The notes beneath the pieces were generated by a model, which had not been told where the DNA came from, searched no databases, and was given only the letters and a program-made list of their open reading frames with translations. Below are positions 4,383 through 8,931 of a stretch of DNA of 64,000 bases, one piece after another. Source of the stretch: Escherichia phage ECO07P2. The stretch lies in the sequence record OP172785. One strand, written 5' to 3'. A program made the position numbers and the translations under genes. Positions within the stretch are counted from its first letter, which is position 1; every line of letters begins with the position of its first letter.

Positions 4383-4386
4383 CAAT

Positions 4387-4414
4387 GGGGACCTTTCGGT
4401 CCCCATGTTTTTAT
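4387..4414 (+). terminator. rho-independent terminator after gene 54 (GGGGACC-TTTC-GGTCCCC hairpin plus T-run)
   Basis: perfect 7-bp stem with tetraloop followed by tgtttttattt. Confidence 0.6.
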
Positions 4415-4701
4415 TTACGGAATGAAATGAAAGCAGCAACTGAAGCAACTAAACTGTCTTCAATATAAACTTCAATTTTTACCGGAGCTTCTGACTCAAA
4501 TTTACCTGTTACCACACCCTGAAAAATACTTTCAGTCTGTTCTGGCTTTGAAAAATTTTCAGAAGGAAAAATTCCGAACTTTTTATCTGTTCCAAAAATT
4601 TTAATAAATTCATCGTAAACTGCTTCATTAAAAGCATTATCAACAGGAATAACGCCTTCAACTACAAGTTCTTGACCTAAAAAGCGCAAAGAAGATTTCA
4701 T
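4411..4701 (-). CDS. hypothetical protein (alt-adjacent small ORF)
   Basis: 96 aa ORF with SD-like aggaacacaaaATG; preceded by early promoter cassette at 4733-4762. Confidence 0.45.
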   Translation of the reverse strand: MKSSLRFLGQELVVEGVIPVDNAFNEAVYDEFIKIFGTDKKFGIFPSENFSKPEQTESIFQGVVTGKFESEAPVKIEVYIEDSLVASVAAFISFRK

Positions 4702-4732
4702 TTTGTGTTCCTCATGTTATGTCAGTAAGACT

Positions 4733-4762
4733 ACTATAACACAACATGAGGAACTTGTAAAC
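4733..4762 (-). promoter_or_regulatory. early-type sigma70 promoter (-35 GTTTAC, TGn-extended -10 TATAGT)
   Basis: revcomp reads GTTTAC-18nt-TGTTATAGT; flanked by 12-bp perfect inverted repeat 4707-4718/4743-4754; near-identical copy at 19622-19651. Confidence 0.55.
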
Positions 4763-6819
4763 TACATTTTGAACTTTTTAGACATTCCGTTAATGTTAAC
4801 CAAAGAAGCTAAGATTTGAGAAACTTCGTTTTCCTCTTCTTTTGATTCTTCTACAAGGAATTGATTAAATCCAGCCATTGGACGAACTTCACCAGTTTCC
4901 ATTAAATGGTCGCCATCATATACTGATTCTTCTAATTGTTCAGAAGGAGGAACGATTGTACCTTCGATTAGATACTTGTTATAAGCAGTTTCTTTCATAA
5001 AGTAAGTACTTACTTTATTAATCTTCAGTAAAATTCCACGTGGTAGAATAACTTCAGCTTCTGATGGAAATCCTGATAAATGACCTGGAACGATAACTTT
5101 GATTCGCTCAGCTCCTTTAATTACCATACCCACGCTAGTTTCAGCATCTTCATTAGCATATGTAGAATGACTACCCATATACATCAAATCTTCAGCATCA
5201 ACAGAACCTTCTCCTTCACCAGAAAATACTGCGCCGGAATCATCTAGAGCCATATAGTTTTTACCATGCTCACCGAAGATATTTGGTTTAAGCGATGTGG
5301 ATACGAAGTTCTTGAAATAGAACATTTTATTTTCAATGTTATGACGCAAAGTTTTAAAAGTAACTTCTTGTCCACGATAAAGCGTAGTTCCTGGAGGAAG
5401 AACTGAACCTTTAGCGAATGCAGAATCCATTGTCTCGATGTGTTTAATGGCTCGTTCCATGTATTCTTCACGGGTAGAATCTGGTTTACCCAAGAGGAAC
5501 GAGTTCATTTCAACATATGAATCTGCACAATAATCTTCAATTACATCAGACTCAGCCTGAGTTAATCCTTTTGGAGTTACTTCAGTACTTGCATATTCAT
5601 ATGCCTGGGCAGCAGATTCATTAATCAATTTATAAATGCCATTCATGACAAATTGAATAATAGCTACCTTTTCGTCTGGCGTGGCTTTAGAACCTTTAAC
5701 TAAATCATTGATAATTTTCTTAATAACATCAAAGCTATTAGAAATATTAATATCAGCAAGATCGCTTAAAATTTTATCAGTTTTATAATCAAAGAATTCT
5801 TTATTTTCTAAATATTCTTGAGAACCTTGATATGTTATATCGCTCTGCAACTTGATGGATGGATCACGTAAACGTGCATGGGCTAATGCAATATGATTTC
5901 GGAAGTTTTCTAGTTCATAATCGCTAGATTTAAAACGAGAAGCACTTCTCATACCACCGATAGCTCCTTTGCTGAAGTTTGAACCAATCTGAATAACGCC
6001 AGAGTTCATTGGTCCTTCTGCTTTATATACCGGAACTTTAGATTCAAACTCTTGATATTTCTTGGCAGCGAAGCTATCACCCTGAAGCGAAGCATCTACA
6101 GTAGAATATTGAGCTTGCGCTGCTAATCGACGACTAATTTTAGTTTTCTGAATAACAGCTTGATCCGTGCGCTTATCATTTTCTAAAGCAATAGAAGCAG
6201 CAACAGCAACAGCTTTAGGAACAGCATTACCTGTTTTAACATCTACATAAACATCACCAACCTTTGATTCAACTTTTGTGAATAACTCAGTTGAAATAGG
6301 AGGTACACCTGGAATGTCTTCTAAATTGGTATTTTTACGGTAAACCATAATATATGCATACTTTTTATCATAATCCCAGATTTCCTTTAAAAGAACATAT
6401 CGACCTGCTCCTTTAGTACGTACTAAACGGTCAGCAATAACTTGCATTTGACGAGCTGCGCCATTTGTTTTACTTTTTAGTACGCGGAATAGGCATGCGT
6501 CAATTTTATACTGTTTCATTGTTTGAAGAGCAGTATCAAAAACCGCATTAATAACACCAATTGGATTTCCACCCAAGTTTTTAAGTTTAACTAATGATAA
6601 TTTCTCATTAACACCTATCATTACGATATGCATCATTTTATCGCCTGGCTTAACGTTTTTATTTGTATCACCGCCAGAGGTGTATGTACAAAATCTAAAT
6701 CCAGGAAGCACACTTTCTTCACCGGCTTGAATAGCGAAAATTTGAGGTATTTTATGCTTAGGATTTAAGTTAACAACCGGCGCCGAAGCGCCGTCAAATA
6801 ATTCTGTAATAAGTTCCAT
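4762..6819 (-). CDS. Alt-family mono-ADP-ribosyltransferase, paralog A
   Basis: 685 aa; N-terminus MELITELFD shared with neighbouring paralog; C-terminal ART motifs LYRG, FVSTSL, EAEVILPRG (R-S-E type). Confidence 0.8.
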   Translation of the reverse strand: MELITELFDGASAPVVNLNPKHKIPQIFAIQAGEESVLPGFRFCTYTSGGDTNKNVKPGDKMMHIVMIGVNEKLSLVKLKNLGGNPIGVINAVFDTALQTMKQYKIDACLFRVLKSKTNGAARQMQVIADRLVRTKGAGRYVLLKEIWDYDKKYAYIMVYRKNTNLEDIPGVPPISTELFTKVESKVGDVYVDVKTGNAVPKAVAVAASIALENDKRTDQAVIQKTKISRRLAAQAQYSTVDASLQGDSFAAKKYQEFESKVPVYKAEGPMNSGVIQIGSNFSKGAIGGMRSASRFKSSDYELENFRNHIALAHARLRDPSIKLQSDITYQGSQEYLENKEFFDYKTDKILSDLADINISNSFDVIKKIINDLVKGSKATPDEKVAIIQFVMNGIYKLINESAAQAYEYASTEVTPKGLTQAESDVIEDYCADSYVEMNSFLLGKPDSTREEYMERAIKHIETMDSAFAKGSVLPPGTTLYRGQEVTFKTLRHNIENKMFYFKNFVSTSLKPNIFGEHGKNYMALDDSGAVFSGEGEGSVDAEDLMYMGSHSTYANEDAETSVGMVIKGAERIKVIVPGHLSGFPSEAEVILPRGILLKINKVSTYFMKETAYNKYLIEGTIVPPSEQLEESVYDGDHLMETGEVRPMAGFNQFLVEESKEEENEVSQILASLVNINGMSKKFKM

Positions 6820-6822
6820 GAT

Positions 6823-8880
6823 TTATCCTTGAACGAACTTGTAAGGCATGTTTGTAATATCTATGCAAGACGCAATAATTCCAAGAGATGATTCTACTTT
6901 TTGTTTAACATTTGATGAAACAAATGATGCAAAGTCAACTCTGTCTTCTATTTCAATATCACCTGTCATTGCAACTACTTCACCAGTTTCCATTAGACGG
7001 TCACCGTCATAAATTACCGATTCGGTGAGTTCTTCCGTAGTCATAACTTCAGCTTGAATAAGCTTGTTGTTAGTTTTAACTGTTCCATCATTGTAAGATG
7101 CATCGGTTATTTTATTAATTTTGACCATTAATCCACGTGGCAAAATGACTTCCATTTCATTTGAAGGCGCTAAACTTCCACCGGGTAAAACAACATTGAC
7201 TTTATCAGCTCCAGTAATAACCCATCCAATTCCAACTAAATTATCGCTAGAATTAACAAGCCCTTCATCATTTTTATCGATAGAAATGCTTAGACGCTTT
7301 TCATCTGGTAAAACACCCACAGCTGAATCAGTCATCCAAGTACCAAAAATGTTTGGATATAATGATGTTGATACAAAATTTCTAAAATAAAAAACTCGAT
7401 TTTTTACCAATGCTTCATATATTGAAGGTAACATTCGCTGTGAACGATATAAAGTAATACCTTTTGGCAATCGATCACCATTTTTAAAGGCTGAATCTAA
7501 ATTATCGATGGCTTGTTCTATTTCGGGTGCTGTCAAAATACTTGTACGCTCATCTGGATTATATAATCCCAAAAGAGCATTATTCATGTCTACATATCCT
7601 GAACCCACATATTCACGAATTCCGCGTTTTTGAGCCGGTGTGTATTTAGATGAATCTTTATTTTCGACTATAGAATGTAATGACCACCCAACGGTAAGAG
7701 CATATCCACGTAATTCTCTTCGAATAATCTTTGTTTTTATTGCATTCCAAGAATTTTGCACCAACTCATTCGCAGCATCTTGATTTAAATGCGAATGCTT
7801 GTTAATATTTCTTTCTAACCAAGCACTTTTATATTTTTCTAAAGTATCATCGACTATAGAAGCAATAGTTTCTAAAGTTTTTATTGAAGTAATAGATTCT
7901 TTTCGTAATCTTTCTAAAGCTTTATTTTTTATTTCTGCATTAACGTCAGATTCTTTATCTTCAGGAATTATAGAAGCTTCTCTGAATGCCATTCCAGCTG
8001 TAACACTATTAAGAGCATTCTCTAATGCAAATCCTGAAGTAGAAATAACAGTCAATTCGTTAGCATCAGAAATTAAAGGCGCGTCGGCGGGTTTATTTAA
8101 TTCTGCTGCTGAAGCCTCAAATTTTTGAAACATTGGTGTTTCAAATCTAGAAGATTCCAATGACTGACTTTGCGCAATTGCTCTACGGGAAATTTTAACT
8201 TTAACTATTACAGCTTGGTCAGAACGTTTATCGTTTTCTTGCGCAATAGATGCTGCAATTGCCTCATTTTTAGTTACTTGAACCCCAGTATCTTTATTGA
8301 TATAAACGTCGCCGACCTTCGATTCAACTTTAGTAAAGAGCTCGGTACTAATTTCCGGAACTCCTGGAATGTCTTCTAGTGATACATTTTTGCGATGTAT
8401 AAGAATATATGCATACTTTTTATCATAATCCCAGAGTTCCTTAAGAAGGACGTATCTGCCACCTGAACGACTACGGATAAGTCTATCAGCAATAACTTGA
8501 ATTTGTCGAGCTTGACCAGCAGTTTTAGACTTAAGAATACGAAGCATGCAGGCATCAATTTTATACTGACGCATCGTCCGCATTGCAACAGTAAAAACTG
8601 AATTGATGTAATTAATTGGGCTTGGACCGAGACCTTTTAATTTAGCAATTGAACCTTTAGCAGTTAATGTAAAAGGAACAATATGCATCATTTTATCGCC
8701 CATTTTTAAATCGCGATTAGTATCACCTCCAGATGTATAGGTACATAAACGAAAGCCTGGTTGTTCAATTGCATCATCAACATGAACTGAAAAAATTTGT
8801 GGTATTTTCTTCTTTGGATTTAAGTTTGTAATCGGAAGAGTAGTATCTTCGTCAAATAATTCTGTAATAAGTTCCATCAT
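6823..8880 (-). CDS. alt: Alt mono-ADP-ribosyltransferase (capsid-packaged internal protein), paralog B
   Basis: 685 aa; ART motifs LYRS, FVSTSL, NEMEVILPRG; late promoter TATAAATA 21 nt upstream. Confidence 0.85.
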   Translation of the reverse strand: MMELITELFDEDTTLPITNLNPKKKIPQIFSVHVDDAIEQPGFRLCTYTSGGDTNRDLKMGDKMMHIVPFTLTAKGSIAKLKGLGPSPINYINSVFTVAMRTMRQYKIDACMLRILKSKTAGQARQIQVIADRLIRSRSGGRYVLLKELWDYDKKYAYILIHRKNVSLEDIPGVPEISTELFTKVESKVGDVYINKDTGVQVTKNEAIAASIAQENDKRSDQAVIVKVKISRRAIAQSQSLESSRFETPMFQKFEASAAELNKPADAPLISDANELTVISTSGFALENALNSVTAGMAFREASIIPEDKESDVNAEIKNKALERLRKESITSIKTLETIASIVDDTLEKYKSAWLERNINKHSHLNQDAANELVQNSWNAIKTKIIRRELRGYALTVGWSLHSIVENKDSSKYTPAQKRGIREYVGSGYVDMNNALLGLYNPDERTSILTAPEIEQAIDNLDSAFKNGDRLPKGITLYRSQRMLPSIYEALVKNRVFYFRNFVSTSLYPNIFGTWMTDSAVGVLPDEKRLSISIDKNDEGLVNSSDNLVGIGWVITGADKVNVVLPGGSLAPSNEMEVILPRGLMVKINKITDASYNDGTVKTNNKLIQAEVMTTEELTESVIYDGDRLMETGEVVAMTGDIEIEDRVDFASFVSSNVKQKVESSLGIIASCIDITNMPYKFVQG

Positions 8881-8900: not shown

Positions 8901-8908
8901 TATTTATA
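8901..8908 (-). promoter_or_regulatory. T4-type late promoter TATAAATA upstream of alt
   Basis: forward tatttata = minus-strand TATAAATA, about 21 nt upstream of alt ATG. Confidence 0.6.
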
Positions 8909-8913
8909 AAATT

Positions 8914-8931
8914 AAAGGCCCGAAGGCCTTT
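8914..8931. terminator. GC hairpin (GGCC-CGAA-GGCC) between small ORF and alt late promoter
   Basis: perfect palindrome aaaggcccgaaggccttt; likely terminator/RNA stability element. Confidence 0.45.

Follow-up and report, generated by a model that had tools for sequence, protein, structure and literature searches.

There are two full-length genes of the Alt family side by side in the genome of Escherichia phage ECO07P2 (sequence record OP172785), of which a stretch of 64,000 nucleotides, here called the window, was analysed. These genes, altA and altB, probably form a two-gene late operon for two mono-ADP-ribosyltransferases that are packaged in the phage head and injected, with AltB having targets that are partly its own. 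This reading is built from sequence features. Both genes are on the minus strand. The gene altA (6823..8877) is the orthologue of T4 alt and carries the T4-type allele, and altB (4762..6819) encodes a second full-length Alt-family ADP-ribosyltransferase (ART). The initial annotation had placed two adjacent minus-strand open reading frames (ORFs) at 6823..8880 and 4762..6819, each of 685 amino acids from the first ATG, and these were found exactly there. The length of 685 amino acids stands for altB. The altA reading frame begins with ATGATG, and its start is probably the second ATG (8877), which would give 684 amino acids in place of the 685 counted from the ATG at 8880; the second ATG matches the annotated T4 start and has a better spacing from a GAGG Shine-Dalgarno sequence. 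The gene order of the window is that of T4 (Tequatrovirus). Genes 28, 29, 48, and 54 are on the plus strand, and these are followed on the minus strand by alt.-3, the two long ORFs, alt.1, gene 30 (DNA ligase), and the 30.x genes. The locus between gene 30/alt.1 and alt.-3/gene 54 is syntenic with that of T4 alt.

The protein encoded by altA is 96% identical to T4 Alt (NP_049811). AltB shares 46% identity with T4 Alt and 42% with AltA (end-to-end alignment with AltA, E = 3e-159). These pairwise alignments, which the initial annotation had proposed as a check, bear out the paralogy. The family PF03496 (ADPrib_exo_Tox) is matched by both AltA (119 bits, E = 2e-34) and AltB (71.6 bits, E = 7e-20), against a curated cut-off of 23.4 bits. 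The profile phrog_802, annotated as Alt-like RNA polymerase ADP-ribosyltransferase and having 674 positions, covers the full length of AltA (1-684, E = 4e-263) and of AltB (1-685, E = 1e-255). For homologues of these proteins, PF26846 and PF03496 are precomputed assignments. Both proteins begin with MELITELFD and both possess C-terminal R-S-E motifs, as had been claimed. In AltA these are LYR476-478, STS503-505, and EME574-576, and in AltB they are LYR480-482, STS507-509, and EAE587-589. The E-x-E motif is followed by VILPRG in both proteins, and neither copy lacks a catalytic Glu on alignment. The positions of the R-S-E motifs are invariant across an alignment of 22 family sequences. It is thus supported that AltA and AltB are predicted full-length Alt-type R-S-E ART paralogs with intact catalytic motifs.

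The proteins also qualify as having the ART fold. Among solved structures, the Alt family profile matches C3cer, BECa, Certhrax, and Vis. The AltB sequence by itself gave no match to solved structures, and the profile was needed; sequence search also revealed no Alt protein among these structures. The toxins of the C3/VIP2/iota/Vis type (PF03496) are delivered by secretion or through a binary-toxin pore, whereas Alt is delivered by the phage head. In addition, the large N-terminal and helical domains of Alt have no counterpart in these toxins. The Alt/VIP2 clade and the packaging context have been reviewed (PMC5512222, PMC9503650).

The two proteins are not equally similar along their length. 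Identities by region were taken from a three-way alignment of AltA from the window, T6-type AltA, and AltB. The N-terminal module (approximately residues 1-235) is 55-82% identical between AltA and AltB, and the central helical region (approximately residues 240-410) is 3-28% identical. The ART domain is 33-53% identical and the C-terminal ~65 residues are 23-42% identical. The loop between STS and ExE is hypervariable, 7-25% identical and barely alignable. The divergence through the centre and around the catalytic loop that the initial annotation had described is therefore real. The C-terminal region, which would be the propeptide, contains a conserved YDGDxLMETGE block. Three residues ahead of the first catalytic Glu, AltB carries Phe, T4-type AltA carries Pro, and T6-type AltA carries Ile. 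The toxins of the C3 and iota types have at this position of the ARTT loop an aromatic residue that is involved in substrate recognition.

AltB resembles T4 Alt in its N-terminal module, helical centre, C-terminal R-S-E ART domain, and C-terminal propeptide, as well as in both of its gp21 motifs, its genomic position, and its putative late-promoter control. It differs from T4 Alt in that the central ~180 residues are essentially unrelated, the STS-to-ExE loop has insertions, Phe is present where Alt has Pro before E-x-E, and the predicted mature protein is acidic and not basic. The alt orthologue itself is also variable within Tequatrovirus, where it occurs in two allele classes, a T4-type of 682-684 amino acids (T4, JoYop, and the window) and a T6-type of 697 amino acids (T2, T6, FL33, bov9_1, GiZh, PEC04, and VEc20). 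The ends of the two altA alleles are near-identical, with a synonymous divergence (dS) of 0.13 in the N-terminal and 0.12 in the C-terminal part. Their centre is 15-40% identical and dS in the ART region is 1.28. Conserved ends around a diverged centre and ART region are the signature of an effector cassette that is swapped by recombination in conserved flanks.

It is known that T4 Alt is a protein of the prohead core with about 40 copies (PMC5694885; PMC9026906). Mass spectrometry has shown that gp21 cuts T4 Alt after ITE-6 and LTE-619, and the mature protein is 68.2 kDa (PMC5694885). AltA has kept both of these motifs, ITE-6 and LTE-619. AltB possesses MELITE (ITE-6) at its N-terminus and QLEE/S (LEE-631) at the position that is aligned to LTE/S, the slash marking the point of cleavage; what was recorded for AltB is the presence of the motifs only. 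In both proteins the C-terminal L-x-E motif is ~55-65 residues from the C-terminus. The predicted mature products are 68.3 kDa with an isoelectric point (pI) of 8.2 for AltA, and 69.2 kDa with a pI of 6.6 for AltB. Masses this similar would make AltA and AltB hard to resolve on classical gels. These features support the prediction that packaging and processing of AltB follow those of Alt. The shared N-terminal module would place AltB in the core of the prohead, gp21 would trim it to about 69 kDa, and the trimmed protein would leave the head together with the DNA. It would then use NAD+ to modify arginines of host proteins, and at least some of these targets would be other than those of Alt.

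AltB could instead be made late and not be packaged, so that it would act in the producing cell, as do the non-packaged T4 ARTs ModA and ModB, or would have a part in assembly or act as a decoy. Its N-terminal module shares only 55-82% identity with the Alt module and its predicted mature pI is different, both of which would fit with such a role, as would the lack of AltB virion data in the searchable literature. This alternative is unlikely. The N-terminal module and both gp21-type motifs have been kept under strong purifying selection, and the conserved YDGDxLMETGE block is present in the propeptide. Moreover, altB appears to be co-transcribed with, and is probably translationally coupled to, the gene of a known head protein. 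ModA and ModB are not known to have the Alt architecture, which also counts against this alternative.

The expression signals of the locus agree with a late operon. The initial annotation had proposed that a single late promoter at 8901-8908 drives both genes. A T4-type late promoter, TATAAATA, is present at this location (8901..8908, minus strand), 20 nt upstream of the altA start; that it drives both genes is plausible. The promoter is supported by its position and by its conservation before altA in T4, T6, and JoYop, and not by the number of octamers, as TATAAATA was found 7 times in the window against 8.7 expected (no enrichment). After alt.1 there are, in order, a hairpin with a T-rich tail, TATAAATA, the Shine-Dalgarno sequence, and the altA start, and this block is conserved in the same three phages. 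The GC-rich hairpin, AAGGCCTTCGGGCCTT, and its T-rich tail are located 3' of alt.1 at approximately 8912..8931 (minus strand). They were read from the sequence and are invariant in T4, T6, and JoYop; the hairpin was absent from the output of an automatic terminator scan. It is likely a terminator that keeps early transcription from further upstream out of the alt genes. Nolan et al. (2006; PMC1524935) reported that a conserved terminator precedes alt.

At the altA/altB junction (6820..6833, minus strand), the altA stop codon TAA (6825-6823) is separated from altB by a 3-nt spacer, and an AGGA Shine-Dalgarno sequence for altB is contained in the last altA codons. The coding strand within and between altA and altB has no TATAAATA and no MotA-box middle-promoter pattern. 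Given the 3-nt spacer with AGGA and this absence of other late or middle promoter motifs, one late transcript for both genes with coupled translation is plausible and is the simplest reading. Internal promoters for altB were also considered and were rejected, as the only other matches were sigma-70-like, weak, and no more frequent than in shuffled sequence.

The tandem pair is already known. Most of the genus has it, with T4 as the exception, and the novelty that the initial annotation had implied does not hold, as T2, T6, and hundreds of annotated records have the same arrangement. By tblastn, AltB of at least 90% identity is present in about 401 phage records, and a further 820 records have only more distant Alt-type genes. 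The DNA of the locus is matched by 505 records, and in 369 of these at least 80% of the locus is present as a single piece. The protein cluster of AltB at 90% identity has 772 member sequences. Many RefSeq records annotate the tandem pair as 'Alt-like RNA polymerase ADP-ribosyltransferase (x2)'. An intact altB is found in both T6 and T2. The genes T2 EcT2_00208, T6 EcT6_00197, GiZh ANZ51380, and JoYop cm3_032 are direct altB orthologues with 97-99% amino acid identity, a length of 685 amino acids, and an equal position. T2 and T6 pair AltB with the T6-type altA of 697 amino acids, whereas the window pairs it with a T4-type altA. In a note to the GiZh annotation, 'alt.-2' of RB14, RB32, and RB51 is described as similar to altB. 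Nolan et al. (2006) had recognized T4 alt.-1/alt.-2 and ORFs of RB49 and 44RR as paralogous alt duplications, full-length in 44RR (PMC1524935). The alt gene is not discussed in Petrov 2010.

The gene altB is under strong purifying selection. The ratio of nonsynonymous to synonymous divergence (dN/dS) is 0.025-0.078 at dS of 0.08-0.35, by the Nei-Gojobori method (NG86) with seven orthologues (window, T6, JoYop, FL33, bov9_1, GiZh, and PEC04). That altB could be a pseudogene or a decaying copy was ruled out by the intact ORF in about 400 records and by the dN/dS of 0.03-0.08.

The gene altB is also old. In the Dhakavirus KIT01 there are three tandem full-length alt paralogs at the same locus, between alt.1 and alt.-3. 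The Dhakavirus array (KIT01_205/204/203; also JS10) thus has three copies where the window has two. Between AltB and the product of the last gene, KIT01_203, the identity is 47% for the centre, 59% for the ART domain, and 66% for the C-terminus. The corresponding values for AltB and AltA, which are in the same genome, are 14%, 36%, and 42%, and the KIT01 gene nearest to AltA is the first (56-61% in the ART domain). By position as well as by sequence, the last alt gene of KIT01 is therefore orthologous to altB and the first to altA. This region-wise orthology indicates that the effector parts had diverged before Tequatrovirus and Dhakavirus split. The three KIT01 paralogs (AP019521, 861-7124) have 695, 681, and 707 amino acids. 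In a quick motif scan, two of them had no match to the strict E-x-E-V-[IL]-LPRG pattern and one had no [LV]YR.

The N-terminal modules have another pattern. They are closer within a genome (68% between AltA and AltB here and 67-87% in KIT01) than between positional orthologues (42-47%). Recent gene conversion of the N-terminus in this genome was rejected. In the N-terminal part, altA and altB have a dS of about 1.4 and a nucleotide identity of 67%, and their longest shared exact run is 32 nt. It is possible that the similarity comes from older homogenisation, from exchange of effector cassettes onto lineage-specific N-termini, or from co-adaptation to the phage's own head core. These old scenarios are inseparable because dS is saturated.

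T4 does not have a full-length second copy. Its genome (NC_000866) contains one alt and the small alt.-1, alt.-2, and alt.-3, just as the initial annotation had described it, and an equivalent full-length paralog, which would have spoken against that annotation, is not among them. The place of altB is occupied by alt.-1 (61 amino acids) and alt.-2 (67 amino acids). The T4 segment has about 96% DNA identity to altB of the window over its first 349 nt and its last 20 nt, interrupted by one clean gap of 1,699 bp. In T4 an A-run is one A short, and the resulting frameshift splits alt.-1 from alt.-2. A 9-bp direct repeat, CTAAAAAGT, is found at both ends of the deletion. The upstream copy marks the left end of the T4 deletion (6472..6480, minus strand; altB nt 340-348) and the downstream copy marks the right end (4773..4781, minus strand; altB nt 2039-2047). 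The copies are exactly 1,699 bp apart, and the repeat is also present in T2, T6, JoYop, bov9_1, and GiZh. The gap and the repeats that bound it indicate that T4 lost altB by repeat-mediated deletion. Thus, alt.-1/alt.-2 of T4 are a dead deletion remnant and altB is the full-length ancient paralog. The T4 record describes a 'duplication of first part of alt', and one GenBank note describes an 'insertion in alt.-2'. Both of these are ruled out by the positional orthologue in another genus and by the deletion ends on 9-bp repeats.

Remnants of altB are not limited to T4. VEc20 has a T4-type altB remnant beside a T6-type altA. In Pu-Krd-SF5 (PQ759885, 601-3037), there is an altB remnant and altA is split into two ORFs. 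This phage either has no intact Alt enzyme or its sequence contains a sequencing or assembly error.

A loss of this kind would be expected if AltB were a redundant duplicate with the targets of Alt (RNA polymerase alpha Arg265 and others), kept for dosage and heading for loss. T4 and about 100 other records have lost altB at no obvious cost on laboratory hosts, and alt is itself non-essential in T4 (PMC9026906). Nevertheless, redundancy is quite improbable. A dN/dS of 0.03-0.08 over dS up to 0.35 indicates long-term constraint, and the effector part of AltB has been distinct since before the Tequatrovirus/Dhakavirus split. A central domain with less than 25% identity to that of Alt, with ExE-flanking loops that are not confidently alignable, is also not a dosage pattern. 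What favours targets of AltB that are partly different from those of Alt is that the two proteins are unrelated or far diverged in the central helical domain and in the loops around E-x-E. With the centre and the ARTT region this divergent, AltB need not share the RNA polymerase alpha Arg265 target.

The acceptor of AltB could also be something other than protein arginine, such as the RNA-linked NAD substrates of ModB, or nucleic acids. The R-S-E ARTs of T4 include ModB, which is reported to attach NAD-capped RNA to proteins (10.1101/2021.06.04.446905). The substrate class is not readable from sequence, which leaves some room for this idea, and we consider it very unlikely.

Several points weigh against a packaged and injected AltB with targets of its own. 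The L/I-x-E motifs are short and common, and their aligned presence is suggestive only. A literature search found no virion proteomics or biochemistry on AltB, although most subscription journals were outside its coverage and this negative is weak. Only the divergence of the two proteins speaks for distinct targets of AltB. The late promoter is a putative one, recognised in this phage by its consensus sequence and its conservation. Finally, altB is dispensable at least on laboratory hosts, as T4 and roughly 100 other records carry only a remnant.

As a discovery the pair is minor. Hundreds of sequenced T-even-type phages have a second alt gene that is already annotated, and duplications of alt have been in print since 2006. 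The pair still serves as a reminder about T4. T4 is the basis of all Alt knowledge, and it would be a deletion mutant for one of the genus's two injected ADP-ribosyltransferases, provided that AltB is injected as predicted. Comparisons of T4 with T2 and T6 in host takeover or in sensitivity to defences should allow for the difference in altB. Alt is reported to modify MazF. A tentative suggestion, and an unlikely one, is that AltB is an injected effector with targets beyond those of Alt (e.g., a host defence or stress protein), that it explains some of the differences in immunity sensitivity between T4 and T2/T6, and that alt is a polymorphic-effector locus. It arises from the absence of altB in T4 and its presence in T2, T6, and most relatives. 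If this were true, the locus would combine an unchanging module for delivery by the head with exchangeable effector cassettes (T4-type AltA, T6-type AltA, and AltB, and three in Dhakavirus).

The neighbour downstream of altB is alt.-3 (4411..4701, minus strand), a DUF5498 gene identified by PF17602 (E = 8e-64) and by synteny with T4. It is not an ART. Mutants of alt.-3 with a C-terminal extension let T4 escape the CmdTAC defence by stabilising CmdA (bioRxiv 10.1101/2024.02.24.581662). Between altB and alt.-3 there is a strong hairpin (4707..4754, minus strand; dG -27.9 kcal/mol, z -5.6), and its 3' arm holds the Shine-Dalgarno sequence of alt.-3. A promoter scan found an early-type promoter, TTTACA-17-TATAGT with an upstream TG, at 4761..4733 (minus strand), overlapping this hairpin. 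The gene alt.-3 probably has its own early promoter. As the promoter is inside the hairpin, late read-through RNA would mask the ribosome site of alt.-3, and RNA begun at the promoter would be without the 5' arm. In T4 this arm is less complementary. Another hairpin (4385-4406, GGGGACC-GAAA-GGTCCCC), resembling a bidirectional terminator, is present between the convergent genes alt.-3 and 54. Compared with T4, its stem is kept and its loop is changed.

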